From a virus: a DNA stretch of 64,000 nucleotides. Below, piece by piece: positions 42,385 to 63,147 of this stretch. A program made the position numbers and the translations under genes. Location of the stretch: positions 1-64,000 of IMG/VR virus record IMGVR_UViG_3300045450_000145; one strand, written 5' to 3'. The notes under the pieces were generated by a model. It ran no database searches, was not told the DNA's origin, and saw only the letters and a list, made by a program, of their open reading frames with translations. Position 1 is the stretch's first letter; every line of letters begins with the position of its first letter.

Positions 42385-42392
42385 TGCAAACC

Positions 42393-44816
42393 TTATCTAG
42401 CATCTAATACTGATAGAGAGCCGTAAATTATGCCGTTATCCAACACAAATGTCCAGATATCAACGGCATTAGCAGCTGTGGTTCTATTAGGCGGTTGACC
42501 ACCGGCCCATTTAATGATTGAATCCCAGCTTAACGCTCTTCCGGCAGTTCCATCATTCGTGATCTTTGTGGTCCACGAATAAACTTTATCTGTTGATGCT
42601 GGCAAATTAGCAAATGTAATTTTTGTGTTTGACTGCAACGATACTCTAAAGTACGAAACATCTCCACCCTGGATGATATTGATTGTTGTATCAGTTGTAG
42701 TCGCAGATATATTTGCAACAGTTTCAGATGGCATTGTAGGAATAACAATTGCCCTAGAATAGCTAACTAATATTGTTGTTCCTTTGCCATCCCCTACAAA
42801 TACACCGATGTCGTTTGGTATTACATTAATATTTTTCGCATTTGGCAAGAGCAAGTTTGTGCCATGAACTATTGTTGGGCTACCGGTAAATTTTACAATT
42901 CTTAGTGCGCCTTCATTCAAGTCCAGTGTTGTAATTCCCATATCACCAGTTATCGTGACATAATTACCTGTCGCAGCCTGCAAGTTCATATTTTTAGCGG
43001 ATGCAATATCTGCCCCCTTCTTAAAGTCCAAGTAGGAAGTTAAGACGTTTGGCACTTGAGATGCAGTTAACTTTGAGTCTGATCCTAACGTTGCCAAGCC
43101 GCTAGGAGCGCCTATAATTGCACTAGATACTGCATCTGTAATTCCATAACCCGCAATAGTTGTTGGCTTGTTTGTAATTTCACTAAATGCAACTCTACGA
43201 CCAACATTCGAAGTGTAGATATATCCTAGGGCGGTGTTGTCAACAGAAACTAATAATCCTTCAGCGCCAGTTGACCAGCCAATCTTTACTGCATTAGTTC
43301 CTTGATTTGCGCCAGTTCCTTGCTCAACCGGGGTATAACCTAATCCATTTACAACATTTGTTTTTGTAATCTCGCTTCTAATAGTATTGGAGGATTTATT
43401 TTCAACATTTCCTAAATTTACATCCACGTTGGTTAGTGTAATGTCTCCTACTCTTCCAGCCACACTTGTTACTTCTGTAGGCCCACCTTCTAATCTATCC
43501 CATGTAGAACCATCAAAAATGACCATGTCGCCAATTTGCCAATAAGATTGACCATCTAAAGTGGTAGTTCCTTTTGTGCTGACTTTATAAAACTGCCCCT
43601 TAGTACCAGTGCCAGAGGTTAAAGTCGGCGTGTTAGTATTAGCATCCCAAAGTCCTTGATATTGTAAAGCCCCGACTAGTGATGATGGGATTTGGTTAGT
43701 ATTAAGCTTGCCATTGCCATCTAAAGTCGCAACTCCATTATTTGCGCCGAGAAGGCTGGTATTAACTGCATCCCTAATACCATATCCAGCCAAGTTAGTC
43801 GGCTTGTTGGTAATATCGGCGAACGCGGGTGGCGCCACATCTTTTAAACTAATTGCAGTAATGCGGCCCTTTGAATCTACAACTAAGGACGGAATCTTAT
43901 CCGCCGCACCATAGGTGCCTGCACTTACACCAGAATTTGCGAGGGTGACGCTAATATTGATGTCTTTAGACCCATCAATACTCACTGTGCCTAGTGCATC
44001 CTGACTCATTGTAAGTAATCTAGAAGTTGTCCATTTGTCTGCAGTCGCAGATGTTGATAAGTTAAATGGTCTATTTGTCCATGAAGAGCCATTCCAAACT
44101 AAACTATCATTTATTGCCTTAGAATTAATTGCAACGTTTTTTAATTCGTCAAAATTGGGCATATTATGGACGTGGTCAGCTCTTGCTGCGGTTGTTGCTA
44201 CACCTACCGCAGCAGTACCTAAATTGGCGCCTGTGTTATCGCCTAATTTTAGGTCGTCAGTAATACCATAACCAGATAAAGTTGTCGGCTTATTTGTAAT
44301 GCTAGCAAATGTAGGGGTGATTAAAATATTGCTCGCACTCATGACTCTACCAAATGCATCGACGGTAAATGCACCTGTTTGCGTAGAGGAACCAAAAGTA
44401 CCTGGAGTAACGCCAGTGTTAACTAACCCAATTGTTGGGTTGCCTAATACCCCGTTTGCATTAGATATTGAGATGCCACCCGCATTTATAATTGCGCGTG
44501 TAGCAACTATGCCATCGCCTGTGCGAGCTAATAAGCCAGTGGATGTTAATTCAGCCAACGCGGTTAAATCAATATCTAGTTTTTGACCATCGGTAATTCC
44601 ATAACCACTTAGGGTATTAGGCTTGTTAGAAATGACATCCCACGCAACTGCCTTGAAATCAATCCAATCCAAATTACTGAAGAAGTAGAATGCATTTAAG
44701 TCAGTTCTAAAAAATAATTCTCCTGGAGACGGATCATCTGGGAATTTGTCGCCGCTCGCAACCGTAGCGTTAAGGATCGAACTGCCTTCTGTGATTTTTG
44801 GACCGTCAATTAACAT
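42393..44816 (-). CDS. tail fibre protein with internal repeats
   Basis: Four (F/W)..I.NKPT.L.GYGI.D repeats, G-rich beta repeats; TATAAATA at 44843-44850 on minus strand. Confidence 0.85.
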   Translation of the reverse strand: MLIDGPKITEGSSILNATVASGDKFPDDPSPGELFFRTDLNAFYFFSNLDWIDFKAVAWDVISNKPNTLSGYGITDGQKLDIDLTALAELTSTGLLARTGDGIVATRAIINAGGISISNANGVLGNPTIGLVNTGVTPGTFGSSTQTGAFTVDAFGRVMSASNILITPTFASITNKPTTLSGYGITDDLKLGDNTGANLGTAAVGVATTAARADHVHNMPNFDELKNVAINSKAINDSLVWNGSSWTNRPFNLSTSATADKWTTSRLLTMSQDALGTVSIDGSKDINISVTLANSGVSAGTYGAADKIPSLVVDSKGRITAISLKDVAPPAFADITNKPTNLAGYGIRDAVNTSLLGANNGVATLDGNGKLNTNQIPSSLVGALQYQGLWDANTNTPTLTSGTGTKGQFYKVSTKGTTTLDGQSYWQIGDMVIFDGSTWDRLEGGPTEVTSVAGRVGDITLTNVDVNLGNVENKSSNTIRSEITKTNVVNGLGYTPVEQGTGANQGTNAVKIGWSTGAEGLLVSVDNTALGYIYTSNVGRRVAFSEITNKPTTIAGYGITDAVSSAIIGAPSGLATLGSDSKLTASQVPNVLTSYLDFKKGADIASAKNMNLQAATGNYVTITGDMGITTLDLNEGALRIVKFTGSPTIVHGTNLLLPNAKNINVIPNDIGVFVGDGKGTTILVSYSRAIVIPTMPSETVANISATTTDTTINIIQGGDVSYFRVSLQSNTKITFANLPASTDKVYSWTTKITNDGTAGRALSWDSIIKWAGGQPPNRTTAANAVDIWTFVLDNGIIYGSLSVLDAR

Positions 44817-49458: not shown

Positions 49459-50877
49459 TTAATTTGAAATAATAGCGATAGATAATGTAGAAATATTTAC
49501 CGCACCGATTACGCCACTTCTTGACTGCGTTAAGTAATATGATTGAAATGACACGCTATTTTGCGATTTTCCTGATGATATAATCGGAGCGTCTGAAACG
49601 AGCGCATAATTTGAAGTAGGAATAGCAACAACAAAATTGACAGTAATTGTTAATCTATCTGTTTCTTCACCAGCCCCGCTATTAGTAGCTCTTGAAGAAA
49701 CAGACGAAATATTATTACCTTCTAAATAGTTACCATCAACAATAGAAACCCAAGCTTTAACTTTTCCAAACGAATTTGCTACATTACCCGCATTATCGGC
49801 ATAATCAGCGGCTTGCGCTCTACTTGCATTGCCCGCACTATCTGCAAATCCAGCAGTAGAAGCCCTATTGGAGTTAGTTGCGTAGTTTGCATTACCCGCA
49901 TTATCGGCATAATTAGATGCTAAGGACCTATTTGAGGTGTCTGAAGTGTTAGCGTAATTAACGCTCAGTTGGGATGGGGAATAAACATACATGTTAGTCC
50001 CGTCGACACCGCCCCATAGCCAGTTTGGATTAGTTTTCGCATCCCAAGTAAAAATTAAATTTCTATCATTTGGATTACCAGCATTTCTAATACCACGGGC
50101 AGAAATAGCGTTGGCTGCATTTGCTGCATTTTGCGCAGTAGCAGCATCGCCGTTAATGTCGATTGGCCATATATTGTTAAATGGATTAGTGTCAACAGAA
50201 ACTAACAATCTATTAGAACCATTCCAGCCAATATTGACTTTGTTATTTTGTTGGCCAGGGCCCCCACCCTGCTGGACAGGTGTAAATGGCAGCCTACTTA
50301 AATTGATTGTGCCAGCATTAATATTGCTAGCATTTGTGAAGTAAGCTGCATCTAATCCATCAAGCAAATCAGCATCTAAGCCACTGCCTTGCCCGTCATT
50401 TAAGCTGGTCCAAACTTTACCATTGCCAATGCCAGTATTCAAGGTTAGATTGCCACCGACGTCGAGGGTCATCCGGCTCTCATTGCCTGTGATAAAATTA
50501 ATTGGGCCGCCTTCACCACTGAGGGTAATACCACCAGCAGTTGGTGTATTAGCGCTAATGCTACCGCCTCCATCGCCCTTCATATTCACGACCCGTAATC
50601 CGCGAATAGGACCAGGTGATTGGACTGTGATATCACCAGTGACTACGCCGCCAGCTTCCTTATTGATAAACTGCTCAGATGGGGTTGTTGCGACCCAGCC
50701 CTGCCTAACTTGATCACCTAATGCATTTGCATTACTATCTTGGATGAAGCCAAAAACATACAGCCCTGAACCGGGATTAGATGTCTTATAAAATAGCGCG
50801 CCGTCATAAGCGGTTGATGGATCAGGTAGCTCAGCACCGTAATTTATGAGGGCATTCCCGGAGAGATTTTTGTGCAT
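49459..50877 (-). CDS. tail fibre protein
   Basis: GSGLDADLLDG, A.NA repeats, KAWV; TATAAATA at 50902-50909 on minus strand. Confidence 0.85.
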   Translation of the reverse strand: MHKNLSGNALINYGAELPDPSTAYDGALFYKTSNPGSGLYVFGFIQDSNANALGDQVRQGWVATTPSEQFINKEAGGVVTGDITVQSPGPIRGLRVVNMKGDGGGSISANTPTAGGITLSGEGGPINFITGNESRMTLDVGGNLTLNTGIGNGKVWTSLNDGQGSGLDADLLDGLDAAYFTNASNINAGTINLSRLPFTPVQQGGGPGQQNNKVNIGWNGSNRLLVSVDTNPFNNIWPIDINGDAATAQNAANAANAISARGIRNAGNPNDRNLIFTWDAKTNPNWLWGGVDGTNMYVYSPSQLSVNYANTSDTSNRSLASNYADNAGNANYATNSNRASTAGFADSAGNASRAQAADYADNAGNVANSFGKVKAWVSIVDGNYLEGNNISSVSSRATNSGAGEETDRLTITVNFVVAIPTSNYALVSDAPIISSGKSQNSVSFQSYYLTQSRSGVIGAVNISTLSIAIISN

Positions 50878-50960: not shown

Positions 50961-51905
50961 ATGGAACAAACTGGACACCTCAACAACGACTTTCGGCTGT
51001 GCTTGAAGCACCTCATGGATCATGGCTATACTGCTAATCCTCGTGGCACGACTAGCAAGGAAATCCTTAACTACAACATCACCCTAACTAATCCTCGTAA
51101 CCGCGTCATTACCTTCAAGGACCGCAACGTCAAGACAGAATACTTGATGGGTGAACTAATCTGGTATACTAGCGGCGAAGACACCCTTGACGGCATTCTT
51201 CCTTACTCCAAGTTTTGGGCTAACATTACTAACTCTGGCAGTGAGCATCAGTACGATGCCAATACTGTCAATTCCAACTATGGCAACCGTCTCTTCGGCG
51301 TTACTAAGTTGGCTGCGTTCTCGGGCATGAATCAGTGGAACAATACTATCAATATCTTGAAGAATGACAAGGATTCTCGTCAAGCGCTGATGAACATTCA
51401 CGTGCCATCTGACCGCCATACCGGCAACAAGGACGTACCATGCACCATCGCGCTCCAGTGGTTCATTCGTGACAACAAGCTATCTCTCATTACCTACATG
51501 CGGTCTAATGACATCATCTTAGGTTTTACCAACGATGTCTTCCAATTTACCATGCTACAGGAAGCAATGATGGTAAATCTTCGTGAGTTCTATCCTGACC
51601 TTGAACTTGGCTACTACTATCACAACGCAGGATCGATGCACGTCTATGATCGTCACTTCGAGATGGCAGACAAGATCATCAATGCTGAGAATGCATTTGA
51701 CATGAACATGATTCCGATGGATAAGTTCAACTTGGATATTGTTAATGCTCTAGTGAGTGTCGAGTGTGAGTGGCGTAACAATCACGTTAAGTTCGAGAAC
51801 ACCGTTGATTGGGAGCAACTAACTCCATACTGGCAGCTGTGCATGAAGGCCTTCATGGAGAAAGATGAAGAAGCAATGCACCAAATCTTCGGCATTGAGG
51901 ACTAA
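50961..51905 (+). CDS. thymidylate-synthase-fold enzyme with dCMP-type Asp (T4 gp42-like dCMP hydroxymethylase candidate)
   Basis: DSRQA, DVPCT, MRSNDIILGFTND (Asp at the ThyA Asn177 position), GSMHVYDRH. Confidence 0.75.
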   Translation: MEQTGHLNNDFRLCLKHLMDHGYTANPRGTTSKEILNYNITLTNPRNRVITFKDRNVKTEYLMGELIWYTSGEDTLDGILPYSKFWANITNSGSEHQYDANTVNSNYGNRLFGVTKLAAFSGMNQWNNTINILKNDKDSRQALMNIHVPSDRHTGNKDVPCTIALQWFIRDNKLSLITYMRSNDIILGFTNDVFQFTMLQEAMMVNLREFYPDLELGYYYHNAGSMHVYDRHFEMADKIINAENAFDMNMIPMDKFNLDIVNALVSVECEWRNNHVKFENTVDWEQLTPYWQLCMKAFMEKDEEAMHQIFGIED

Positions 51906-51963
51906 AAATAATGTATAATGGCAAGTTAGGGATAAAGCTTCCTAACTTGCCAAAAGGAACTAA

Positions 51964-53715
51964 ATGCGATACGAAAAACAAATTCTTGAAGCCTACGAGC
52001 GAATCGGCTTTAAGCCACGAGATAAGCAAGTTGAGCACATTAATAAGATTCTGATCGCGTTTCTTGACGAACAATTCAAGAACGTTATTTTGTCTGCGCC
52101 GACAGGTACTGGTAAATCCATCATCGGGGCGGTGGTGGCCGATGTAGTTCAAACCATCAAGAATCCTGGCGTAAATCGCGGCGCATCATTTCTGCTCACT
52201 GCGACTAACGTATTAGCTGAGCAATACCACGAAACTTTCGTTGACGACGATGCCCCACACGACGAGGTCTTCCACATCATCAAGGGCGCCGGCAACTATG
52301 AATGTGCCGCATTGTCTGAACCACAAGAGCCACAATCTGCCGAAAATTGCGCCATCATGCTTTTCAAGAAGAGCGGCATGGATGACATTATCAGCCAATA
52401 TTGTGATAGCTGTGAATTCCAATTCAGCCGGAAGATGAAGGAAAAGGCGCGGCACCTAATCACAAACTATTCATACTATTTCGTTGACCGCATGTACTCG
52501 CAGCACCCAATGGAGAAGCGAGCAGTTTGTGTCTTCGACGAAGCCCACCTATTGAATGACCTTTTCACTGAGCATAATGCAATTTACTTTAGTGAGAAAA
52601 GGCTTCACACAATGGCTGACGAGATTTCTGAAAGCTTAAAGTTGGGCAACACTGACATCTATAAAAAGATCAAATTAATTAAGGACCACCTCGTCGCCAA
52701 AAAGATCACCGAAGATAACTACAAGACATATCTGAAGACGCTACTTGAAGTGTACAATGACATCTCAGATGCAGCAAAGAAGGAAGCAGAGCGTAACGTC
52801 CGCTCTCAAAGCACCTACTTGAAATTAAACAAGCTCAGCAAGAAGTACTTCAATTTTGGGTGCAAAATTGATGACCTATTCATCTTTGACTATCCTCACG
52901 TCTTTGAATTCAAGGAAAAGGATGTCAAGAAGGGCAATAACGACAACGAGATTTCTGTCAAGCCCATCTTTATTGGTGAGATGTTCCAAGCGCTAGATAA
53001 TGCCGATCACAACTTGCTAATGAGCGCCACCATCAGTGAGCAGTATGCGAAGAGAACCATGGAGTTACCTGGCACTACGAAGCACATTCGGCTTGAGCCA
53101 CAATTCCCACCTGCAAACAAGAAGGTAATCTTCTTCAAGACGCAAAACTTGAACTACACCTCGATGAAAGACCCAGTTACGACCAAGAAACTGTGTGCGA
53201 CGACTTATCAGATTGTGAAGCACCATACTGACAAGGGAGAGCGCGGCATTATCTTGGCTCCGTCCTTCAATGTAACTCAGTCTTTGGCTGAAACTTTGCG
53301 CATGATGGGAAATGAGTATAAAGTGTTTGAGCATGAACGTGGTCAGAAGCTGGCCGACATTCTTGAGGACTTTAAGGCTTATACTGGAAAGCCTGCGGTA
53401 TTGCTGACTCCATCAGGCTTCGAAGGTGTTGACTTGCCAGGTGACTTGAGTAGATTCCAGATCATTGTCAAGATGCCATTCGCCTCACTTGGCGATAAGC
53501 GAATTGCGCACATTTTAAGTGTATATCCTGACATTTATGGTCTAACTGCGCTAATGAAAGTCGTGCAAGGTGCAGGCCGGTCGGTAAGATCACATGCAGA
53601 CTGGGCGACCACTTACATTCTAGATAACGCAGCTCAGCGATCTTGGGCCGCCAAAAACAATGAATGGACTGACGAATTTTCCACCAGTTACACTTCACAA
53701 TTAACGCAGGATTAA
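51964..53715 (+). CDS. DinG/Rad3-like SF2 helicase
   Basis: SAPTGTGKS, Cys cluster, DEAH, MSATI, EGVDLPG, QGAGRSVR. Confidence 0.9.
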   Translation: MRYEKQILEAYERIGFKPRDKQVEHINKILIAFLDEQFKNVILSAPTGTGKSIIGAVVADVVQTIKNPGVNRGASFLLTATNVLAEQYHETFVDDDAPHDEVFHIIKGAGNYECAALSEPQEPQSAENCAIMLFKKSGMDDIISQYCDSCEFQFSRKMKEKARHLITNYSYYFVDRMYSQHPMEKRAVCVFDEAHLLNDLFTEHNAIYFSEKRLHTMADEISESLKLGNTDIYKKIKLIKDHLVAKKITEDNYKTYLKTLLEVYNDISDAAKKEAERNVRSQSTYLKLNKLSKKYFNFGCKIDDLFIFDYPHVFEFKEKDVKKGNNDNEISVKPIFIGEMFQALDNADHNLLMSATISEQYAKRTMELPGTTKHIRLEPQFPPANKKVIFFKTQNLNYTSMKDPVTTKKLCATTYQIVKHHTDKGERGIILAPSFNVTQSLAETLRMMGNEYKVFEHERGQKLADILEDFKAYTGKPAVLLTPSGFEGVDLPGDLSRFQIIVKMPFASLGDKRIAHILSVYPDIYGLTALMKVVQGAGRSVRSHADWATTYILDNAAQRSWAAKNNEWTDEFSTSYTSQLTQD

Positions 53716-53734
53716 AAATTGTTATAATTCACTT

Positions 53735-54913
53735 ATGAATTACAAACCCGACCCGTTGGCTTCCCGCCGAGACCAAGCAATTGACAAAGCACTCGGCATT
53801 AAGCGGCGAAAGAGAAACAAATCTATGAAAATTCGAAGAAAGGTTATGCCCATGTCACATCCAATCCGCTCATACGAAGCAATGGACGACACCCACGTTT
53901 ACAAGCAGGGTGTTCGTCGAGATGAAGTCGTGTTGGGAGTTTACGGCACCGAGGAATGGATCGTCAGCGACTTCGCTCGTGATCAATACCTAGCAGGCAG
54001 CCGGTGTGTTCAGATCGACAACATCTACATTGTCCCGGCCGGCTTCAATCTAGCTGAGTGGGTGATGAGTATTACTGACGACCAGTTTAACTTCTTCTCC
54101 TCAAACCGCGTGTTGATCCGCAGCACCAATGCTGATGGTAAACCAGACTGCCTAATTAAGGTAACTTCAGGTCGTGGTAAGATGGAAGTCGAGCTGCTAG
54201 GTGAAGTCAGCAAAGTCAAGCAGTGGGATGGTAAAATCAGCGCCATGTTCAAGAAGGCGCAAAACCTAATTCAGTGGGTTTACAGCCAACGTGGTGATGA
54301 AATTAGCGTGCCACTAAATTACCGCCCACCGGTCGAAGGCGCATATCCATTCCTCGATAAGCCAATCATGGACTACATCGATGACTACCTCAACAGCAGC
54401 GCCAGCATCTTGATCCTGCAAGGTCCACCAGGTGTGGGTAAAACCAGCTTAATTAAAGCGCTCATTCACCGTAGCGCCGCAAATGCTAAAGTTGCATACG
54501 ATGAGAAGGTGATGGCAGATGATAATCTCTTCGCGATGTGGATCGAAGATGACAGCCGCTTCATGGTTCTGGAAGATGCTGATGCATTCCTGAAAACTCG
54601 TGAAGATGGAAACACGATGATGCACAAGTTCCTCAACGTGTCAGATGGATTGATTTCAGCTGCAGATAAGAAGCTAGTTTTTTCCACCAACCTGGACAAC
54701 ATTAAGGACATCGATTCAGCTCTAATGCGACCAGGCCGGTGCTACGACGTTGTCGAAGCCCGCGCCCTAACTGCTAAGGAAGCTCAGAATGTATGCGATC
54801 TAAATCCGGACGCGAGAATGCGCAGCGACAAGTCATCATACACACTAGCTGAACTGTTCTCCGAGATTGGTTCGTCAGAAAAGAAAAAGGACCGCAGAAT
54901 CGGCTTCCTATGA
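53735..54913 (+). CDS. AAA+ ATPase
   Basis: GPPGVGKT, VLEDAD, FSTN..D.ALMRPGR; start uncertain. Confidence 0.9.
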   Translation: MNYKPDPLASRRDQAIDKALGIKRRKRNKSMKIRRKVMPMSHPIRSYEAMDDTHVYKQGVRRDEVVLGVYGTEEWIVSDFARDQYLAGSRCVQIDNIYIVPAGFNLAEWVMSITDDQFNFFSSNRVLIRSTNADGKPDCLIKVTSGRGKMEVELLGEVSKVKQWDGKISAMFKKAQNLIQWVYSQRGDEISVPLNYRPPVEGAYPFLDKPIMDYIDDYLNSSASILILQGPPGVGKTSLIKALIHRSAANAKVAYDEKVMADDNLFAMWIEDDSRFMVLEDADAFLKTREDGNTMMHKFLNVSDGLISAADKKLVFSTNLDNIKDIDSALMRPGRCYDVVEARALTAKEAQNVCDLNPDARMRSDKSSYTLAELFSEIGSSEKKKDRRIGFL

Positions 54914-55206
54914 TCTTGTCATCACGCACCAAGTCATACACCATGGGGGAGGGCGAATACGCTCTTCACCTTAATGCCGCACAACTTGAACTAATCACTG
55001 CATATTTGAATAATACCATCTTAGGTGATAGTGGTTATAAGGGTGCGGCATTTGATTTAGCACTAGCCATTGAGAAGAAAATGGGGCCTGATTTCTTCGA
55101 CCACAGCACCAAACAGGTAATGCTGTGTGTTAACACGTTAGACAAAAATGGTGTTATAATTGACACTATTGATGGATGTGATGCTGCAATTGAGGTAAAA
55201 GAATGA
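54910..55206 (+). CDS. hypothetical protein
   Basis: 98 aa, ATGA overlap. Confidence 0.6.
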   Translation: MILSSRTKSYTMGEGEYALHLNAAQLELITAYLNNTILGDSGYKGAAFDLALAIEKKMGPDFFDHSTKQVMLCVNTLDKNGVIIDTIDGCDAAIEVKE

Positions 55207-55778
55207 AGAAGATTTTTGCAATCGAAGGGCTTGATCGACTTGGTAAGTCAACTTTAATTAAGAACATCCAACATAAGCTTGGCTTTTACCAAGTCATTCA
55301 TTTCTCTAAGCCTGTGGTTCTAGACTGCAAAATAGCTCTTTATAAAAATTTAGGTGGTGACACGCTAGAAAATCGGCGCGAAGCACTAGCAATGTATCAA
55401 AGCGAGTCTTTTTGTAATTCCTTTGTTTTAACTAAAAGTTGCGCTAATATTATCTTTGATAGGTGGCACCTAGGTGAAGCTGTATATGCAAAAAGGTATC
55501 GCGGGTATGATGGTGATTATGTCTTTTGTTTAGAACATATCGGCGATTTAGATAAAGTTAGGCTTATCTTACTAACTGAGAACTTTGACGTGAGCAACCA
55601 TTTCATTAGTGATGGTGAAAGCTTTGATGATAGCAAACGTCTAGAAGAGCAGGAAGACTTTAAACGTGCATTTAATATGTCGCGTATTAAAGACAAGCGA
55701 ATCATCTGCGTAACTGACCCACTGACGGGCTTATTCAGATCAGAAAAAGATATTTTAGCGGAAGCACTGGCGGATTAA
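55203..55778 (+). CDS. dNMP (thymidylate-kinase-like) kinase
   Basis: IEGLDRLGKST P-loop, IFDRWHLGEAVY. Confidence 0.85.
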   Translation: MKKIFAIEGLDRLGKSTLIKNIQHKLGFYQVIHFSKPVVLDCKIALYKNLGGDTLENRREALAMYQSESFCNSFVLTKSCANIIFDRWHLGEAVYAKRYRGYDGDYVFCLEHIGDLDKVRLILLTENFDVSNHFISDGESFDDSKRLEEQEDFKRAFNMSRIKDKRIICVTDPLTGLFRSEKDILAEALAD

Positions 55779-55919
55779 GATGAATGCTGATACCTGGATT
55801 TTACTTATTGCGGCGGTTGTAATTTTCGGGTTTATGTATTCGATGGAATACATCCGGCATGACGTCACTAAGCCGATTATTTTAGTCGTTTTAATTACAA
55901 TTTTGTTAATAATTTTGAT

Positions 55920-56429
55920 ATGAGCTTATTTGGAAAACAATTCGATAACTTAGATCGTGACGTGCAGTCAAAATATAGTCGCATGCTTCGTATTAGAATG
56001 CTAGCATATATGCAGGCGCTGCGACGAGGATATAATGCTGATATTAAGGCGGTAATTATCGGTGATACTCCCGGACCGGGTCGGCCTACTGACCCAAACT
56101 ATCACCACACGCCATTTTACTCAACTAAGAATTCTTCATTCTGGTTGAATAAACAACTCATTGAAAATGGTATCGATGAAAATAAGCTGCTTTGGTATAA
56201 TGCACAGCTTGCAGATAATTCATACCTCGATAAGGTACATGTTGAGGACGTGCTACGTTACAAGCCACAATTTATTGTATTAGGCGGCAATGCAGAAAAG
56301 TGGTTCAAAAAGGCATTACCTAATATGCCTTATGTTAAGGTGTACCATCCACAATTTGCTAAGCGCTTCAAATCTAAGGAACAATACCAACTCATTGAAG
56401 TATTAAAGAATGCCCTATCCTCCTCATGA
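55920..56429 (+). CDS. uracil-DNA-glycosylase-superfamily protein
   Basis: IIGDTPG, PF..S..L, WYN, VLG.NA, YHPQF. Confidence 0.6.
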   Translation: MSLFGKQFDNLDRDVQSKYSRMLRIRMLAYMQALRRGYNADIKAVIIGDTPGPGRPTDPNYHHTPFYSTKNSSFWLNKQLIENGIDENKLLWYNAQLADNSYLDKVHVEDVLRYKPQFIVLGGNAEKWFKKALPNMPYVKVYHPQFAKRFKSKEQYQLIEVLKNALSSS

Positions 56430-56643
56430 GCTGAATGAAAAGGAGCTGATGGAATATCTTACGAAGTATGAAAATGGTGAGATTATTCCAGCTCTAATTA
56501 TGCATCAAGTGTTCATGCTTGCAAGAGCCGAACTAAAAAACAAGGAGTGGTTAAATTACCTAACCACACGTCACATTTCACAATATGGAAAGCCTCTAGA
56601 TGATGTCGCAATTTACCCCAATGACCGAAGACGAGCTCGATGA
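56410..56643 (+). CDS. hypothetical protein
   Basis: 77 aa ORF. Confidence 0.55.
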   Translation: MPYPPHELNEKELMEYLTKYENGEIIPALIMHQVFMLARAELKNKEWLNYLTTRHISQYGKPLDDVAIYPNDRRRAR

Positions 56644-56742
56644 ATGGATTGCGTATTATAATGCCGGCAATGAGCTTGAAGATGACATCATGATAAAGTT
56701 ATTTGCCAGTTTGAAATATTACCTAAACAGGGAAAATGTAAA

Positions 56743-57030
56743 ATGAGAAGCATTGACATTCCACCAGGCGCGCTAAAGGTGACACGTTTTAAGCAATATG
56801 ACGATCACCCTGAAGTGTGGGAAGATTATATTTCAAGTTGTGGCGGTGACACTGGCACGGGTGAATACTATATTACAACCGCAGATGAAGAAGTCACATA
56901 CAATGGAGGAAACTCCTATACAACAAAAGAAATTAAGAGACACATTCGTGTTAATAAAGGTGACTATATTTTTGACATGCCAGGTGGCAATTATATTGTA
57001 GTGCCTAAACCGAGAAAATCTAGTAGTTAA
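56743..57030 (+). CDS. hypothetical protein
   Basis: 95 aa; V..GDYI motif. Confidence 0.6.
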   Translation: MRSIDIPPGALKVTRFKQYDDHPEVWEDYISSCGGDTGTGEYYITTADEEVTYNGGNSYTTKEIKRHIRVNKGDYIFDMPGGNYIVVPKPRKSSS

Positions 57031-57049
57031 TTTAAGGTATTGATGAGGA

Positions 57050-57433
57050 TTGAGAATGGAAGAAAATTTTTCATATATGGAAGATGCCGCAGATAAAATT
57101 TGCCATGCTCTTATAAATGACCCTGATAGGTGGATAGTCTCAACATATTCTCTTTTGGATATTAAAACTAAAATTGACTACTGGATCGGCAGTCCTGAGG
57201 GATACATCATCAATACTTGGAATGGCAACTCAAATGATCGGGTTTTCTCGGATAAACAAGGAAAACGAATCTATGATGCCTTCCAAGCTATGCTAAAGTA
57301 CAAAGAAAGCGAGGCGCAGAAAAGGGTTTTAAAGGGGATGTGCTCTAATACTTCATTAAAAAATCTAGACGATTCTACTTCTAAGCAACCTAATAAAAAT
57401 AAAACTAGTTTTTGGAAGTGGCTCTGTAGCTAA
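57050..57433 (+). CDS. hypothetical protein
   Basis: 127 aa ORF. Confidence 0.6.
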   Translation: MRMEENFSYMEDAADKICHALINDPDRWIVSTYSLLDIKTKIDYWIGSPEGYIINTWNGNSNDRVFSDKQGKRIYDAFQAMLKYKESEAQKRVLKGMCSNTSLKNLDDSTSKQPNKNKTSFWKWLCS

Positions 57434-57469
57434 GATAAGTAAAAGAGTTAAACTCATTTAGGAATAAAG

Positions 57470-58348
57470 ATGAAAGTTTTGGTGACCGGCGGAAGCGGGT
57501 ATATTGGCGCTCATGTGTTGATGGAATTAACAAAGCGGGGCGTTAATTATATTGACGTTATTGATAAGAAATTAACTACGTCACCAAATGACATTTCTTA
57601 TTTGGCAACTAATACTTATGATGGAGACATCTTGAGCGAAGGCGCTCTCAGTATGCTAAGAAAGGACTACGATGCAATCATTCACCTTGCTGCGTATATT
57701 TCAGTTGAAGAGAGCGTGAAGGAGCCAGTCAAATATTGGCGCAATAATTTACTTTCAACGAGCAAAATCATTGATCATGCCAAAGGTGCACATTTAATAT
57801 TTGCATCTACAGGAACTGCATTTAACCCTAATAACCCTTATGCATATTCTAAGTTAGCGTGTGAGCTTGAAATTATTAAAAGGCTTAAAACCAACTATAC
57901 TAATTTTAGGTTCTATAATGTTAGTGGCATGCATTATGTTTTCAAGCCGACTGGTGAAGCTACTCACCTTATTCGACGGGCTGCAATGGCCGCTCGAGGT
58001 CTTATTCCAGAACTAACTGTATTTGGTAATGACTGGGATACTTTGGACGGCACGTGCGTTCGAGACTACATCCACGTTAAAGACCTAGCAGCATCTATCG
58101 TAAATGCGGTCTTTGAAGGTCCAGCTAACACCCCATATGAATGTTTAGGCACTGGTGATGGTTATACCGTAATGCAAGTTATTCAATCGATGAAAAAGGT
58201 AAGCAATACGGATTTCAAGGTTAATGTTTCTGACAAACGACCGGGCGATGTGGGAAGTATGATCTGCGATTCACAATACAAACACATCCGTTTGCATTAT
58301 AATTTAGATGACATGTGCAAAAGTGCATATGAAACTATTGGAGATTAA
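57470..58348 (+). CDS. galE: UDP-glucose 4-epimerase-like NAD-dependent epimerase
   Basis: VTGGSGYIG, HLAA.ISVEES, YAYSK, RFYNV, DGTCVRDYIHV.DLA. Confidence 0.9.
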   Translation: MKVLVTGGSGYIGAHVLMELTKRGVNYIDVIDKKLTTSPNDISYLATNTYDGDILSEGALSMLRKDYDAIIHLAAYISVEESVKEPVKYWRNNLLSTSKIIDHAKGAHLIFASTGTAFNPNNPYAYSKLACELEIIKRLKTNYTNFRFYNVSGMHYVFKPTGEATHLIRRAAMAARGLIPELTVFGNDWDTLDGTCVRDYIHVKDLAASIVNAVFEGPANTPYECLGTGDGYTVMQVIQSMKKVSNTDFKVNVSDKRPGDVGSMICDSQYKHIRLHYNLDDMCKSAYETIGD

Positions 58349-58350
58349 AA

Positions 58351-58542
58351 ATGATCAGAGCATTTTTTACAACATATGTGATTATTGGGATTATCACTTT
58401 AATTGGCTGGATTGCAAATTTAGTGCAACTAGTAAATGGGCCTTCAGTTCTGAAAGACCCTTCCAATGTTACTATCGTTAAAGTGATTGGCGTTCCAGTG
58501 CCGCCAATCGGCGTTATCATGGGTATTATTGGGCTATTTTAA
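58351..58542 (+). CDS. small membrane protein
   Basis: Hydrophobic 63 aa ORF. Confidence 0.6.
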   Translation: MIRAFFTTYVIIGIITLIGWIANLVQLVNGPSVLKDPSNVTIVKVIGVPVPPIGVIMGIIGLF

Positions 58543-58544
58543 AA

Positions 58545-59702
58545 ATGAAAATTTTAATTACCGGTTTTAATAAAAATCAGTGCACTAGAAAATTTTACCT
58601 GCGGCAGCAGCTGAAAGTCGTGCCTTCACATTACAGCCTTTTTAACTGCTTGACTGCGATGGGGCATGAAGTTGAACAGCGCCAAGCGCAGATCGGTGAG
58701 GACCTCTCTGCATATGACGAGGTGATAGTCTTTATCGCAGGTCCTCGTCAACTTGTCGCAACTACAGTATTTGAGGGGCTATGGGCCATCTCACAGAAGC
58801 CAGATTGTATCTTGGCTTTTGATGACTGGCAAGTGCCTGACTTATTCAAGGGCGTCGCAAAGTGCCAAGATCAGAAGGAACTATTTGCGCAGTTTATCTT
58901 AGATGTGAATAAGAAAACCGTAGATCAGCTTGAGCCATATGCAGATGCATTTAGTAAGGCGATTGATGTAATTGTCAAGAAGCAGAATCGAATGCTAATA
59001 TCAGCATTTAAAACTGATCATCTAAATGACGACTCATTTGGTGCCCATCTGCTATTTGACAAAATTGATTACCCAAAAGATCGGCTCTTTGTCTATAATC
59101 CAAATCCATATCACCGCAATCGAAAATGGAATGATGAAGATCATGAGGGTGAAGAAGACCCAACATTTAAGCCATCTTTATTATCAGCAACTTGCAATCC
59201 TCGACCAGGCAAGGAACGACGATTTAACTTTGCAAGTTTAGTACAATCTAAAACGCAGAAGTGGTTGAAAAAGCAAGGCTATACTGGCAATCCAAAGAAT
59301 GACGAAGAAGGTGATATTGGTGGGTGGCCGGTTGATTTGTATGGTTCAAAGTCAGATACACAAAAACGTCTAACTGAAGATCAGATGGTGCAGGTGTTTA
59401 CGAGGGATTGGGCATGTCTAATGCCAGCATATGATCACGCTGGTTCTGGCTGGTGGAGAGCGCGCCCATTACAATGCGCGGATGCTCGTTGCATTTTGAT
59501 CGGAGATGACAAGGAACTTGCAGTGTATTATGGTAAAAACTACCCCCTATTTGGCTTAACTGCGAAGGATATTGTTGATATTTCCCTAAATGATTTGAAG
59601 GAAATTACTGACATTCAAGGTGCTCTTTTATATCAAAATCACCCGCTAGATAAACAAATCCAGCAAAAAGAAATTTCAGAAGTTTTAAAGGCGCCAAAAT
59701 GA
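58545..59702 (+). CDS. GT-B glycosyltransferase, T4 beta-glucosyltransferase-like (DNA-modifying candidate)
   Basis: MKILI..N..KVVPS..L..MG..V resembles T4 BGT N-terminus; C-terminal R..Q...A..IL.D. Confidence 0.5.
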   Translation: MKILITGFNKNQCTRKFYLRQQLKVVPSHYSLFNCLTAMGHEVEQRQAQIGEDLSAYDEVIVFIAGPRQLVATTVFEGLWAISQKPDCILAFDDWQVPDLFKGVAKCQDQKELFAQFILDVNKKTVDQLEPYADAFSKAIDVIVKKQNRMLISAFKTDHLNDDSFGAHLLFDKIDYPKDRLFVYNPNPYHRNRKWNDEDHEGEEDPTFKPSLLSATCNPRPGKERRFNFASLVQSKTQKWLKKQGYTGNPKNDEEGDIGGWPVDLYGSKSDTQKRLTEDQMVQVFTRDWACLMPAYDHAGSGWWRARPLQCADARCILIGDDKELAVYYGKNYPLFGLTAKDIVDISLNDLKEITDIQGALLYQNHPLDKQIQQKEISEVLKAPK

Positions 59703-60256
59703 ATGTATACACCCTCGAAGAGATGAATGACTTACCGGCAGGCACATGCATTCAAGATGCAAAGCTAAAATTAATTAATAATATTGAATACTATGAAGGT
59801 ACAGTATCATTTCGAGGGTGCTCATTTGAAACTTCAGTCTTAGCGTCAATGTGTGAAGAACGTAATAACACGCCTCATAAAGAACTACTAGAAAAAATGA
59901 GTGTCGCTAGAACGAATAGCGCAATAAAAACATTAAAAGACCTTTCACTTAAGAACAAACGCGAGCGGTTAACAACCTACATTGTAATTAATAACACTGG
60001 CTTGGGCGGTTTACCTATCGGCACAAAACTTATCGACTGCGTGCAAGATACCAGCGATCAAAATTTTATTGTTGGTAAAGCTGAACACACTGGCAGCACG
60101 TGGTGTATTGCAAAATCTAAAGTTCGGCCGATTGCAAATGACACAGCGCAGGAAAATATTTCAGTTCTTCTTAAGCAGGTCATTATTGACTTGGCAAAGC
60201 TACAAGCTGATATACAATATATTGCTGATTTAAATCGCTCATATTATGGAAATTAA
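59699..60256 (+). CDS. hypothetical protein
   Basis: 185 aa between GT and glf. Confidence 0.65.
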   Translation: MNVYTLEEMNDLPAGTCIQDAKLKLINNIEYYEGTVSFRGCSFETSVLASMCEERNNTPHKELLEKMSVARTNSAIKTLKDLSLKNKRERLTTYIVINNTGLGGLPIGTKLIDCVQDTSDQNFIVGKAEHTGSTWCIAKSKVRPIANDTAQENISVLLKQVIIDLAKLQADIQYIADLNRSYYGN

Positions 60257-60265
60257 AGGATAAAG

Positions 60266-61525
60266 ATGAATATTTTAGTTGTGGGAGCGGGCTTCTCCGG
60301 TGCAGTTGTGGCCCGTGAACTTGCAGAGGCAGGGCACAAAGTTACAGTAATTGATAAACGTGATCACATTGCAGGCAATGCATTTGATTACGTAAATGAA
60401 CACGGCATTCGAGTTCACAAATATGGGCCCCACCTGTGGCACACAAACAGCGAAGAGGCGCATGCTTGGTTTAGCAAGTTCACAGACTGGCTTCCATACC
60501 GTCACAAGGTGCAAGCATTACTGCCTAATGGTAAGTATACTCCACTACCTATCAATAACCAAACTATTTTGGATATTTTTGGTGAGGAATTCAGTAAGTT
60601 TGTTGATTGCGGCAATCCTAATACCCAAAAATATTGGGGCTATCAGGATGAAGAGGCTGATAACTTGTATTATTACAAGCAGCTCGCATTTAATGACTTC
60701 ATGATGATAAAGAGCGTAGATCATGAAGAAGTCACTAACTCACGTGAGCATGTAGAAGTTTCAGTCGGTAGAGAGCTGTGTGAGCTATTCTTTGCGCCAT
60801 ACACAAAGAAAATGTGGGGTATGGACTTGTCAGAATTGCCAGCTTCTGTTGCTGCGCGTATTCCTACAAATCCTAGCTTCCAAAACGAGTACTTCCCAAA
60901 AGATAAGTTCCAGGGAATGCCGGCAGAAGGTTATACTAAAGCATTTGAAAAAATCTTTGATCACCCAAACATTAAGGTTTTACTTTCTACTGGTAGAGAG
61001 CAATTCTTAGGTGGTAATTTCTATGAAGATCACCGTCGATCTGCTGAAAAGTTCGATCATATCTTCACAGGCGAACCGATCGATACGTATTTTGACTGCA
61101 AGCTAGGTGAACTACCATGGCGTTCCATTAAGTGCAATGTTTACTCAGTGCCATACCCATTAGTATTGCCAGAGTCAGTAGTTAATTTTACGCATGATGG
61201 TCCATATACTCGCATTACAGAGTGGAAGCAACTACCTGGTCATGGTGAGAACCCTTATTGGACTACTTTAACTGCAGAAGAGCCATGCGATTACAAGGAT
61301 AATAGAAATGAGCGCTATTATCCAGTCAAGACCTCGCAGCGCGATGATCCACACCGCAAGTTATATCATGAATATGTAGAATTGGCAGAGAAGGAAGAGA
61401 ATGTCACCTTCATCGGCCGGTGTGGCACATATCAATATTTAGATATGTGGATTGTCATCATGCAGACCCTAAAGATCGTTGAACAATTTAAGGCCCAATT
61501 TAAGGGTCAATTGCCTGTAGTATGA
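60266..61525 (+). CDS. glf: UDP-galactopyranose mutase
   Basis: VVGAGFSG, RDHIAGNAFD, HKYGPHLWHT, YTKKMWG, RYYP, GRCGTYQYLDM. Confidence 0.95.
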   Translation: MNILVVGAGFSGAVVARELAEAGHKVTVIDKRDHIAGNAFDYVNEHGIRVHKYGPHLWHTNSEEAHAWFSKFTDWLPYRHKVQALLPNGKYTPLPINNQTILDIFGEEFSKFVDCGNPNTQKYWGYQDEEADNLYYYKQLAFNDFMMIKSVDHEEVTNSREHVEVSVGRELCELFFAPYTKKMWGMDLSELPASVAARIPTNPSFQNEYFPKDKFQGMPAEGYTKAFEKIFDHPNIKVLLSTGREQFLGGNFYEDHRRSAEKFDHIFTGEPIDTYFDCKLGELPWRSIKCNVYSVPYPLVLPESVVNFTHDGPYTRITEWKQLPGHGENPYWTTLTAEEPCDYKDNRNERYYPVKTSQRDDPHRKLYHEYVELAEKEENVTFIGRCGTYQYLDMWIVIMQTLKIVEQFKAQFKGQLPVV

Positions 61526-61552
61526 TATAATTCCTGACATAGGAGATAAACT

Positions 61553-61858
61553 ATGTCAGGAATTTTTGACGCAGACGTAAAAAGGCGAGCGTTAGTTCGC
61601 AAGTGGCACTCACAACGCTACGGCACAGATATTAACGAGTGGGAAGTCATTGAGCTCAATACCTGCAATAATCAACCATTAAAACCTGGTGATGTGCCAG
61701 ATATTGTGTTAGGGAGTCGCAATCATGATGACGATGTGTGGCTCTATATTACTGGCAACTTTGACTATAAGCAGAAGCGTTGGGTTGCTGATGAGCTCTG
61801 CGCGCAACTTAACATGATCGAAAACCTTCAAGCCGAGAAATTTAAAGATGAACTTTAA
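61553..61858 (+). CDS. hypothetical protein
   Basis: 101 aa, SD aggag. Confidence 0.65.
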   Translation: MSGIFDADVKRRALVRKWHSQRYGTDINEWEVIELNTCNNQPLKPGDVPDIVLGSRNHDDDVWLYITGNFDYKQKRWVADELCAQLNMIENLQAEKFKDEL

Positions 61859-62474
61859 TAAACCAACCCTTATTACCTTGACTGGGCCTACTTGCTCTGG
61901 TAAGTCACACATGCTCACAAAGCTCATTCAGGAAGGATTTACCCGAATTGTTTCCACTACCACCCGTGAATGTCGATCTGGTGAGAAGGAAGGAGTAGAT
62001 TATTTCTACATCAGTGAAGGTGAATCAAATGAGATGGAATTAAATGGCGAGTTTGCAGAACTGGTTACGTTCCTAGGGGTTAGGTATGGTGTTACAAACC
62101 AAGAAATGGCTGGTAAAATGTCGCAAGACACTCCACCAGTTGTAATTCTAGAGCCATCAGGTTTAGAGATGTACAAACATTATTGTAATGCTCACGGTTA
62201 TGGCATCTACTCGATTTATGTTCATACACCAGAAGACACACGAATTACTAGAATTAAGCAGCGTGCTTACAATGACTTGACATTTGGTAAAGCGAACTTT
62301 AAAACCGTAGATGTACTTGCATCACGCATCATCTCGGCGGTGGGTGTAGAGCGCACTTGGATTAGCCAACATAAGTATGATTTAATCGTTGATGGCACAA
62401 ACGAGCAGAAGGCCTTACAAGACATCTATCTTGGGATTGAGCAGCGCAATAAGAGGCAATCAATTTACTCATAA
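61848..62474 (+). CDS. gmk: guanylate-kinase-like NMP kinase
   Basis: GPTCSGKS, STTTR..R.GEKEGVDYFY, YGV. Confidence 0.85.
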   Translation: MNFNKPTLITLTGPTCSGKSHMLTKLIQEGFTRIVSTTTRECRSGEKEGVDYFYISEGESNEMELNGEFAELVTFLGVRYGVTNQEMAGKMSQDTPPVVILEPSGLEMYKHYCNAHGYGIYSIYVHTPEDTRITRIKQRAYNDLTFGKANFKTVDVLASRIISAVGVERTWISQHKYDLIVDGTNEQKALQDIYLGIEQRNKRQSIYS

Positions 62475-62505
62475 ATAAAACCTTTGATGACAAGGGAACG
62501 ATGAC

Positions 62506-62964
62506 ATGATTAATTCCTCCTTAGGAGAACTACAACATACCAAGCGCGTCGGCTTCACGTGCTCCTGCTTTGATCTATTCCATGCAGGCCACGTGTTAAT
62601 GCTAAGAGAGGCACGGAGCAAGTGCGACTATCTACTTGTTGGAATGCAAACTGACCCAACGATTGACAGGCCAGAAAAGAACAAGCCAGTGCAAAGCGTC
62701 TTTGAGCGCTATGTTCAGCTTGACGCATGTAAGTACGTCGATGAAGTTGTGATGTATGCAACTGAAAAAGACCTAAAAGATATTTTACTTGCATATCCAA
62801 TCGATGTTAGAATTTTAGGCGATGAGTATGAAGGTAAGCCATTTACCGGCTTTGACATCGACATGGAATTCTACTTTAATTCCCGTAAGCATAGCTTCTC
62901 AACCAGCGAACTTAGACAGCGGATCGCTGAAATTGAAAGGCAGAAATTAGAGAAGATGAAATGA
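62506..62964 (+). CDS. HxGH cytidylyltransferase (TagD-like)
   Basis: FDLFHAGH, ER..L.ACKYVDEV, FSTSELR. Confidence 0.88.
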   Translation: MINSSLGELQHTKRVGFTCSCFDLFHAGHVLMLREARSKCDYLLVGMQTDPTIDRPEKNKPVQSVFERYVQLDACKYVDEVVMYATEKDLKDILLAYPIDVRILGDEYEGKPFTGFDIDMEFYFNSRKHSFSTSELRQRIAEIERQKLEKMK

Positions 62965-63147
62965 CACCAATTGTAGCCGCATTGTTAACACCAGTTCCAG
63001 GTTTAGGGGGCATGCTAGGTAGTTATTTGCTGCCAGTTTTGATCTTGGTTGGGATTGTATGCTACTTAATTGGTAAGGGTAACAAAGGGTAATATTATTA
63101 CCCTTTTTCTTTGTTTAATTTTATAATTTAATTTTATAGGACTTTGT

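Follow-up and report, generated by a model that had tools for sequence, protein, structure and literature searches.

Which base, and which sugar on it, would be made by a phage gene block that encodes a thymidylate synthase (TS)-fold enzyme together with a glycosyltransferase (GT), a GalE-like epimerase and a UDP-galactopyranose mutase (Glf)? The question is raised by positions 50,961 to 62,964 of a 64,000-nucleotide stretch of viral DNA, the window analysed here, which is the first 64 kb of IMG/VR record IMGVR_UViG_3300045450_000145 (183,546 bp; G000 below). Sugar-decorated cytosines decide the exposure of phages to restriction systems, CRISPR nucleases, type IV enzymes and DNA glycosylases, and they are also the source of tools for mapping 5-hydroxymethylcytosine (5hmC). 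The reading favoured here, which we consider probable, is that the virion DNA of the window phage carries galactofuranosyl-5hmC. If true, this would be a new sugar chemistry on hydroxymethylcytosine, a variant of the T4-type sugar camouflage; it would join the classical T4 pathway to the furanose modifications on 5-hydroxycytosine reported in 2026, and it would give a function to a family of transferases resembling T4 beta-glucosyltransferase (BGT) that has hundreds of members in viral metagenomes.

The record is about 51% complete (CheckV). Its closest relatives, which are uncultured, measure 349,660 bp (G001, 97% complete) and 358,444 bp (G002, with direct terminal repeats, 100% complete), so the source genome is that of a jumbo phage of about 350 kb. 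Among 50,697 deposited phage records, megablast returned no match to the 12-kb block. The genes of the block all lie on the + strand and are closely packed: neighbours overlap by up to 20 bases or are at most 141 bases apart. All the genes of the block named in a preliminary description of this DNA are present on that strand, those other than the GT being confirmed with Pfam and NCBIfam. The gene order cannot be put down to chance, as numerous independent viral contigs repeat it. The argument turns on four of the genes:

50961..51905, + strand: TS-fold enzyme of 314 amino acids, predicted deoxycytidine monophosphate (dCMP) hydroxymethylase, that is, 5-hydroxymethyl-dCMP (5hm-dCMP) synthase; PF00303 Thymidylat_synt, E 4.5e-25
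57470..58348, + strand: short GalE-like UDP-hexose 4-epimerase of 292 amino acids; TIGR01179 galE, 1.1e-61, with family motifs
58545..59702, + strand: GT-B glycosyltransferase, T4 BGT-like; predicted DNA 5hmC galactofuranosyltransferase from fold and synteny
60266..61525, + strand: Glf, predicted maker of UDP-galactofuranose; PF03275 GLF, 3.4e-54, and NAD_binding_8, 1e-18

The glycosyltransferase and its neighbours

Sequence searches place the GT at a distance from characterized enzymes: phmmer against the PDB gave no match even at E ≤ 10, and no homolog was detectable in the genomes of T4, RB69 or P10VF. Its relatives number 443 among 1.84 billion representatives, and 64 of these were used as the alignment for an AlphaFold2 model (predicted local distance difference test score, pLDDT, 93.2; predicted template modelling score, pTM, 0.91). 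The top five Foldseek matches of the model are all T4 BGT (best E 3.1e-6), and VIA-align superimposes the model (residues 1-383) on T4 BGT with Z 18.3 and a root-mean-square deviation of 3.7 Å over 304 of 351 residues. Lower Z values were obtained for SenB (16.0), PimA (15.6), T4 alpha-glucosyltransferase (15.3), and the DNA arabinosyltransferase of HY126 (14.6). The preliminary description had likened the N-terminus of the protein to T4 BGT, and profile comparison with hhalign agrees, aligning the N-terminal 73 columns only (probability 62%, E 7.5e-5), with BGT also the top structural match. We regard the GT as BGT-like by its modelled fold, although by sequence it does not belong to the BGT family. 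Four residues vary little or not at all among the relatives of the GT, namely Asp94 (at the end of strand 4), Arg305, Arg307, and Glu278; they are candidate counterparts of the catalytic Asp100 and the UDP-binding Arg/Glu residues of BGT.

The strongest evidence that this GT acts in DNA modification is its neighbourhood in other viruses. A scan of IMG/VR with 12 close GT sequences found 219 relatives, and 80 loci were retained with 10-kb flanks, in which neighbouring genes were counted by tblastn with the window proteins. Glf is present in 64 of these loci, beginning anywhere from a 3-base overlap with the GT stop codon to 545 bases downstream of it; a TS-fold gene lies upstream of the GT in 67 loci, and a GalE-like gene directly upstream of it in 54. 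On a maximum-likelihood tree of the GTs, Glf adjacency occurs throughout except in one clade, which looks like a single loss; in the clade of the window GT, Glf accompanies every member that has enough flank.

In phage T4 the gene order is 42, beta-gt, uvsX. A T4-like contig, L081, carries in order a gp42 homolog, the GT, UvsX and the gp41 helicase; another, L053, carries a gp42 homolog, a nucleotidyltransferase, GalE, the GT, Glf, a C5-methyltransferase-like gene, and UvsX. By its place between a gp42 homolog and UvsX in both contigs, the GT family sits in the beta-gt slot of T4, although the jumbo-phage window itself is excepted.

GT and Glf are also adjacent in cultured phages, namely the T4-like Aeromonas phages 25, Aes508, Aes012, phiAS4, and 50AhydR13PP, Stenotrophomonas phage IME13, Erwinia phage FBB1, and Kyanoviridae phage C48C1. 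In the Tulanevirus phages 25, Aes508, and 50AhydR13PP, and in IME13, FBB1, and C48C1, the GT is 28-35% and Glf 38-41% identical to the window proteins; these phages differ in having no GalE, helicase, AAA, uracil-DNA glycosylase (UDG)-fold, or cytidylyltransferase genes at the locus. The gp42 proteins of 50AhydR13PP and FBB1, the two examined, have MRSND...RND and are thus of the hydroxymethylase type. No published chemistry was found in the literature on the cultured GT-Glf phages; because the family occurs in cultured Aeromonas, Stenotrophomonas, and Erwinia phages, the prediction is directly testable with existing isolates.

Phage C48C1 differs from the others. Its genome has no TS homolog, and it was considered as a counter-example, but in place of that enzyme a 472-amino-acid Tet_JBP dioxygenase (E 3.3e-19) is encoded directly upstream of the GT-Glf pair (L004 10586-14033, corresponding to OQ984149.1 49583-53030), and the objection was set aside because this enzyme is an independent source of hydroxymethyl-pyrimidine. 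The C48C1 genome gave no C5-methyltransferase match; the substrate of the dioxygenase could be thymine, in a base-J-like reaction, or 5-methylcytosine from another enzyme. With a TS-type enzyme or a Tet_JBP enzyme beside the same GT-Glf pair, two unrelated sources of 5-hydroxymethyl-pyrimidine adjoin that pair. This suggests a modular logic in which a hydroxymethyl group is made, by a TS-type or a Tet/JBP enzyme, and then furanosylated.

The same neighbourhood bears on whether the transferred sugar is a furanose at all. If 5hmC were made and the GT added a pyranose (glucose or galactopyranose), Glf would serve a second sugar, for example one handled by another GT of the window, or a glycan of the host or virion. 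T4 BGT, the nearest fold, takes UDP-glucose; the members of the one clade without Glf or GalE nearby need a common host sugar nucleotide; and several GT-B enzymes act in series in RL38JI, DLP3, and RB69 (PMC13326640). A candidate for the second GT exists at 21461-22630, a GT4-like gene (Glyco_trans_1_4, 1e-7) overlapped by a weakly matched GH1-like gene (20298-22630 for the two, + strand). Its product may be a surface enzyme or add sugar to DNA as a second transferase; of the relatives, G001 (the closest) alone retains the two genes, with 56% identity for the GT4-like one. However, 36 kb separate this gene from the pair, and G002-G004 lack it while retaining GT-Glf; no other transferase is conserved with the pair, and the Glf gene stays next to the GT across nearly the whole GT tree. 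Transfer of a pyranose is on this evidence rather unlikely, and transfer of galactofuranose by the GT is preferred.

The TS-fold enzyme and the predicted base

The motif on which the preliminary description was built, MRSNDIILGFTND, is encoded at 51498-51536 exactly as it had claimed and comprises residues 180-192 of the 314-residue product. The catalytic pair of the family is aligned, with Cys161 in VPCT (C146 of E. coli ThyA) and Glu65 in GELIWY (E60); the other key residues are Asp158 (Leu143 position), Ser182, Asp184 (Asp169), Asp192 (Asn177), and Arg140. These assignments come from a MAFFT alignment with T4 gp42, the gp42 proteins of 50AhydR13PP and FBB1, the RB69 synthase, its P10VF counterpart, and four ThyA proteins, in which MRSNDIILGFTND of the window enzyme stands opposite MRSNDVVFGFRND of T4 gp42, QRSVDxxLGLPFN of ThyA, and MRSQN...D of the 5-hydroxy-dCMP synthases (RB69, P10VF, Morganella Rgz1). 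Asp192, in GFTND, aligns with T4 GFRND and ThyA LPFN, which bears out the earlier observation of an Asp at the Asn177 site. The Leu143 position is likewise acidic, reading KDVPC in the window enzyme and SDFMC in T4 versus ALPPC in ThyA.

Among tested enzymes, N177D confers cytosine specificity, an acidic residue at 143 accompanies hydroxymethyl products, and D169N is carried by all 5-hydroxy-dCMP synthases (Lee et al., NAR 2026, PMC13326640). In E. coli numbering the window enzyme has the pattern of T4 gp42, with Asp177, Asp169 retained, and Asp at 143; it lacks the D169N signature, having Asp184 (MRSND) where RB69, P10VF, and Rgz1 have MRSQN. The pattern is a property of the whole group: when the TS-fold ORFs (open reading frames) of the 80 loci were aligned to one profile, MRSND....G..ND was present in 66 of the 67 non-ThyA copies and D169N in none of the 67. 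Overall similarity points the same way, with phmmer scores of 55-70 bits to enzymes of the gp42 type and 24-25 bits to those of the 5-hydroxy type.

The best PDB sequence matches are the cytidine monophosphate (CMP) hydroxymethylase MilA (2.7e-32) and T4 dCMP hydroxymethylase (5.9e-16), both above any thymidylate synthase. MilA can be switched from CMP to dCMP by exchange of its Ala176 and Lys133 (PMC5175136). The window enzyme has MRS and DSR where MilA has MRA and DSK, so that Ser182 and Arg140, the equivalents of Ser167 and Arg126', stand in place of Ala176 and Lys133; a deoxy substrate is therefore predicted. A canonical thyA, for which the preliminary description had recommended a search, is present elsewhere in the record (G000 76151-77023, E 4.7e-100), and the TS gene of the window is thus a second, divergent copy. 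From its active-site residues we conclude that this paralog is a putative dCMP hydroxymethylase.

It is unlikely that the paralog yields some other base, whether 5-hydroxy-dCMP as in RB69 and RL38JI, 5-methyl-dCMP of the XP12 type, or 5-hydroxymethyl-deoxyuridine monophosphate, with the sugar attached to that base or with none. MilA, the top solved structure here, is likewise the best match reported for the 5-hydroxy-dCMP synthases (PMC13326640, Table 1), RL38JI pairs such a synthase with a phage Glf, and the residue rules are empirical. Nevertheless, the window enzyme retains D169, where Asn occurs in all tested 5-hydroxy-dCMP synthases (PMC13326640); Asp at the N177 position speaks against deoxyuridine monophosphate (dUMP) as substrate, Asp at the L143 position speaks for water access and hence for hydroxymethyl over methyl, and a methyl group would lack the hydroxyl for the conserved neighbouring GT. 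Neither Tet_JBP nor C5-methyltransferase families were found in G000 or G001, and a methylate-then-oxidise route in the window phage was rejected on this ground. A divergent ORF of 472 amino acids at 49459-50877 was considered as a counterpart of the C48C1 Tet/JBP protein, also of 472 amino acids, and proved unrelated to it. The base favoured for the window phage is accordingly left as 5hmC, predicted from the residues at the active site.

The sugar donor and the proposed pathway

The identities given to GalE and Glf in the preliminary description hold, both proteins being members of their families with catalytic motifs. The GalE-like protein has GGSGYIG (GxxGxxG), STG (with the catalytic Ser), and YAYSK (YxxxK), and its top 30 PDB matches are all UDP-glucose/galactose 4-epimerases (best 4.4e-41). 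Glf matches the Deinococcus radiodurans UDP-galactopyranose mutase at 1.1e-74, with ASVxARxPT (the mobile-loop Arg), the Arg of LPxRS, and YYPV all aligned.

The preliminary description had left the sugar open between galactofuranose and arabinofuranose. Its reading as a whole is supported by the TS residues, the BGT fold, and the GT-Glf linkage; of the two sugars, arabinofuranose fares less well, as the arabinose-5-phosphate isomerase and the AfhE and AfhF enzymes of the known pathway are absent from the block. Arabinofuranosyl-5hmC would require the GalE-like protein to be a 4-epimerase for UDP-xylose and UDP-arabinose, and Glf to turn UDP-arabinopyranose into UDP-arabinofuranose, two nucleotides that UDP-galactopyranose mutases of bacteria are able to interconvert in vitro. 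A distant GT homolog (23% identity) is encoded in Morganella phage Rgz1 (OK499989.1; L024 6372-12791) between an arabinose-5-phosphate isomerase and a nucleoside diphosphate (NDP)-sugar enzyme, in a cluster that holds a D169N-type TS homolog (MRSQN), so that the BGT-like family also serves a presumed arabinosyl-5-hydroxycytosine pathway. Arabinofuranosylated cytosine is, moreover, the best documented furanose modification of DNA, in the account given by PMC13326640 and by He et al. 2026 as cited there. Yet of the route known for this sugar, from ribulose-5-phosphate through isomerase, kinase/pyrophosphorylase, and phosphatase, the block has no gene; the best matches of the epimerase are all UDP-glucose 4-epimerases; and UDP-xylose is not made by most bacteria, with no UDP-xylose synthase seen in the block. 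Arabinofuranose is hence quite unlikely. That the sugar genes do not concern DNA, with GalE, GT, Glf, and the nucleotidyltransferase remodelling the host surface or glycosylating virion proteins, is very improbable: GalE and Glf are classic surface-polysaccharide genes, the Glf of Agrobacterium phage Atu_ph04 is annotated as one (PMC6630229), and the GT acceptor is a prediction only, but the best fold match of the GT is a DNA glucosyltransferase, its relatives occupy the slot from gene 42 to uvsX in T4-like contigs, and it has beside it a gp42-type enzyme in 67 of 80 loci and a Tet/JBP DNA-base dioxygenase in C48C1.

The pathway leading to galactofuranosyl-5hmC would have five steps. The TS paralog would convert dCMP to 5hm-dCMP with methylene-tetrahydrofolate and water, as its active-site residues suggest. 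Phosphorylation of this product to the triphosphate (hm-dCTP) would fall to the Tmk-like kinase, perhaps aided by the Gmk-like kinase and by the NDP kinase of the host, and the phage replisome would put the triphosphate in place of dC. The GalE-like epimerase would convert host UDP-glucose to UDP-galactopyranose, and Glf would contract the ring to give UDP-galactofuranose; the HxGH nucleotidylyltransferase perhaps supplies an activated precursor. Finally, the BGT-like GT would flip out 5hmC in duplex DNA and move galactofuranose onto the hydroxymethyl group, as proposed from its fold, synteny, and position. Galactofuranosyl-5hmC would then shield the genome against restriction enzymes, CRISPR nucleases, and hmC-specific type IV enzymes.

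The closest working analogue of this module is the glucosyl-5hmC system of T4. In the T-even phages the set consists of the dCMP hydroxymethylase gp42, the deoxynucleoside monophosphate kinase gp1, the dCTPase gp56, and the alpha- and beta-glucosyltransferases. The window has a TS enzyme with the same signature (MRSND...ND and an acidic residue ahead of the catalytic Cys), along with a nucleotide kinase and a GT for which T4 BGT is the best structural match and whose T4-like relatives lie in the beta-gt slot. It differs in the donor, predicted to be the furanose of galactose made through phage GalE and Glf in contrast to the host UDP-glucose used by T4; in a GT with weak N-terminal similarity to BGT only; in that no gp56-type dCTPase or dCMP deaminase was found; and in that the phage is a jumbo phage of about 350 kb and not T4-like.

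Furanose on cytosine in DNA is already published, and galactofuranosyl-5hmC is the new part. The preliminary description stated that no galactofuranose-DNA had been described, which is outdated: Rhizobium phage RL38JI carries galactose in the base-proximal position on 5-hydroxycytosine, and phage-made UDP-galactofuranose has been proposed as its source (Lee et al., NAR 2026, PMC13326640). RL38JI and the Pootjesviridae resemble the window phage in that one virus combines its own Glf and GT-B transferases with a Tmk-like kinase and a TS-fold enzyme that modifies cytosine. They differ in that the D169N enzyme of RL38JI makes 5-hydroxy-dCMP, which gives an ether link directly to C5 (its relative P10VF has MRSQN), whereas the window enzyme has D169 and a hydroxymethyl bridge is predicted; in Pootjesviridae, too, Glf is far from the TS gene and not beside a GT, and P10VF has no detectable homolog of the window GT. 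Arabinofuranosyl-5-hydroxycytosine is established for RB69, DLP3, and HY126, as set out in PMC13326640 and in He et al., Nat Chem Biol 2026, cited there. These phages likewise have a furanose on C5-modified cytosine placed by GT-B enzymes, with a TS homolog, a Tmk-like kinase, and genes for NDP-sugar synthesis, but their pentose comes from ribulose-5-phosphate via an isomerase, AfhE, and AfhF, where the window phage has a hexose route through GalE and Glf; their base is 5-hydroxycytosine (D169N) versus the predicted 5hmC, and RB69 has no detectable homolog of the window GT. A search of full-text literature found no report of Glf-dependent or galactofuranosyl modification of 5hmC.

Several points weigh against galactofuranosyl-5hmC. 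Each step of the pathway rests on sequence, predicted fold, and gene context, from which we infer all of its substrates and products. For the base, the D169/N177/L143 rule is empirical, derived from a limited set of tested enzymes, and the window enzyme lies on a separate MilA-like branch with a C-terminal extension. For the GT, no Pfam-A family matches ORF 58545-59702 at E ≤ 0.01, which places it outside the Pfam BGT family; the lead of BGT over unrelated GT-B enzymes is only about 2 Z units; the model does not reveal the donor sugar; and one clade lacks Glf, so a furanose donor is not obligatory for the family. For the donor, the GalE-like protein scores 208 bits against TIGR01179, below the 262-bit equivalog cut-off, and is about 45 residues shorter than typical GalE, so that its substrate is assigned by inference; Glf scores 289 bits against TIGR00031, just below the cut-off of 303.75.

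The exclusion of dC is the other weak point. The preliminary description had proposed a search for a dCTPase; in the record, about 51% complete, this yielded blank or chance-level matches only. Searches of all 183.5 kb with PF03819, PF00383, PF00692, and PF08761, and by phmmer with T4 and Aeromonas-phage gp56 and the MazG-like ORF of G001, found no dCTPase (MazG, dUTPase_2, or T4 gp56 homolog), dCMP deaminase, or clear dUTPase; as the record is about half a genome, these absences are uninformative either way. A dUTPase candidate at 39857-40057 was dropped, being a weak match inside a family-less ORF of a tail-fibre operon. The relatives that are 97-100% complete yield only weak MazG-like matches, one of them inside the G001 module, and full replacement of dC is therefore not supported. 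Galactofuranosyl-5hmC remains, in our judgement, the probable product.

Further genes of the block and its relatives

The remaining genes of the block, with a possible end of the transcription unit, are as follows:

51964..53715, + strand: XPD/DinG-like superfamily-2 helicase; Helicase_C_2, 2e-19, with DEAD_2 and ResIII
53735..54913, + strand: AAA ATPase; Pfam AAA, 6.6e-10
54910..55206, + strand: protein of 98 amino acids overlapping both neighbouring genes; no family match
55203..55778, + strand: Tmk-like nucleotide kinase, candidate hm-dCMP kinase; Thymidylate_kin, 4.6e-5 (below cut-off)
55920..56429, + strand: cysteine-free protein of UDG-superfamily fold, 169 amino acids; Pfam UDG, 0.0011 (below cut-off), with motifs GDTPGP and HPQFAKR
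56410..57433, + strand: three small ORFs (77, 95, and 127 amino acids); no Pfam match, the 127-residue ORF matching phrog_15249 at 4.9e-11
58351..58542, + strand: ORF of 63 amino acids; no family match
59699..60256, + strand: ORFan of 185 amino acids between GT and Glf; no family
61553..61858, + strand: ORF of 101 amino acids; no family match in Pfam, PHROG, or NCBIfam
61848..62474, + strand: guanylate-kinase-like nucleoside monophosphate kinase; Guanylate_kin, 7e-14, and phrog_1815, 8e-30
62506..62964, + strand: small HxGH nucleotidylyltransferase, cytidylyltransferase-like; PF01467 CTP_transf_like, 9e-15, with HAGH at residues 26-29
63084..63106, + strand: terminator-like hairpin with a 10-pair stem and T run from a consensus scan; possible end of the transcription unit

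A near-complete module in the same order occurs in NCBI metagenome contig L112 and in the IMG/VR loci L026, L027, L031, L033, and L057. The order in this lineage is TS paralog, helicase, AAA ATPase, small ORF, Tmk-like kinase, UDG-fold protein, GalE, GT, Glf, Gmk-like kinase, and nucleotidyltransferase. Homologs of the helicase, 49-73% identical, hold the same position in L026-L031, L033, L057, and L112, and the AAA ATPase is syntenic in L026, L027, L031, L033, L057, and L112. The 98-residue protein has homologs at its position in L027 and L031, where L112 has a gene for 102 amino acids.

The two kinases are conserved to different degrees. The Tmk-like protein, which matches phrog_761 (7e-11) and yeast Tmk (E 0.011), is found in 11 of the 80 loci; a Tmk-like "nucleotide kinase" is part of the RB69, DLP3, and RL38JI clusters (PMC13326640, Table 1), and phmmer found no similarity between the window kinase and the genes in the gp42/TS-paralog regions of RB69, P10VF, and Rgz1. 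The Gmk-like kinase matches guanylate kinases of the PDB down to 8e-11 and is syntenic in seven loci and in L112.

The HxGH enzyme is similar, by its PDB matches, to the cytidylyltransferases for ethanolamine-phosphate (3.6e-24) and glycerol-3-phosphate (TagD, 4e-15), matches domain II of RfaE at 5e-19, and scores under every NCBIfam equivalog cut-off. Homologs 54-81% identical adjoin the GalE-GT-Glf core in 23 of the 80 loci. It may act on an alcohol phosphate or on a sugar phosphate, the latter a tentative suggestion by analogy with the NDP-sugar pyrophosphorylase in the clusters of RB69 and DLP3.

The UDG-fold protein was modelled by AlphaFold2 with pLDDT 93.9, and its top Foldseek match is the family-4 UDG 1ui0 (E 6e-5). 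It has 131 homologs, most on metagenomic contigs, several of which are of phage-genome size, and its gene is syntenic between the Tmk-like kinase and GalE in L026, L027, L033, L057, and L112. It could repair uracil or target DNA with unmodified cytosine. In a broader reading that we find unlikely, galactofuranosyl-5hmC would be present in the window lineage and in many T4-like GT-Glf phages, and in the window lineage it would be further elaborated or policed by the extra genes conserved there. The HxGH enzyme would provide another activated group, such as an NDP-sugar or a CDP-alcohol phosphate, and the UDG-fold protein, the XPD-like helicase, and the AAA ATPase would attack the unmodified-cytosine DNA of the host, replacing DenA and DenB of T4.

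The smaller ORFs are less widespread. The three at 56410-57433 had no tblastn match in the 80 loci, and the 63-residue ORF had one weak match, in L057 only. For the 185-residue ORFan nothing was found in Pfam, PHROG, NCBIfam, or Atlas, nor did any of the 80 loci contain a homolog. Scanning for promoters and terminators gave no enrichment relative to shuffled sequence (14 terminator-like sites versus 10.7 expected), and the hairpin at 63084-63106 is weak evidence for a terminator.

Related loci carry some genes of their own. In the module of G001, a GGDEF diguanylate cyclase gene (E 1.2e-44; L057 12680-13810) separates Glf from the Gmk-like kinase, and an ORF of 237 amino acids with a weak MazG-like match (E 0.004; L057 8263-9033) separates the Tmk-like kinase from the UDG-fold gene. 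The window has neither of these two, and G001 has no GalE gene at the module site. A C5-cytosine-methyltransferase-like gene (PF00145, 2.7e-14; L053 12033-13292) comes immediately after Glf and ahead of UvsX in one group of marine T4-like contigs. In L081 (11086-13425) a Hint (intein) domain and an ORF containing NUMOD3 split UvsX. Elsewhere in the window, on the - strand at 38832-44816, a tail-fibre operon encodes a 2-oxoglutarate (2OG)-Fe(II) oxygenase (2.5e-17), a DUF6065 protein, and a tail-fibre assembly chaperone with DUF4376.

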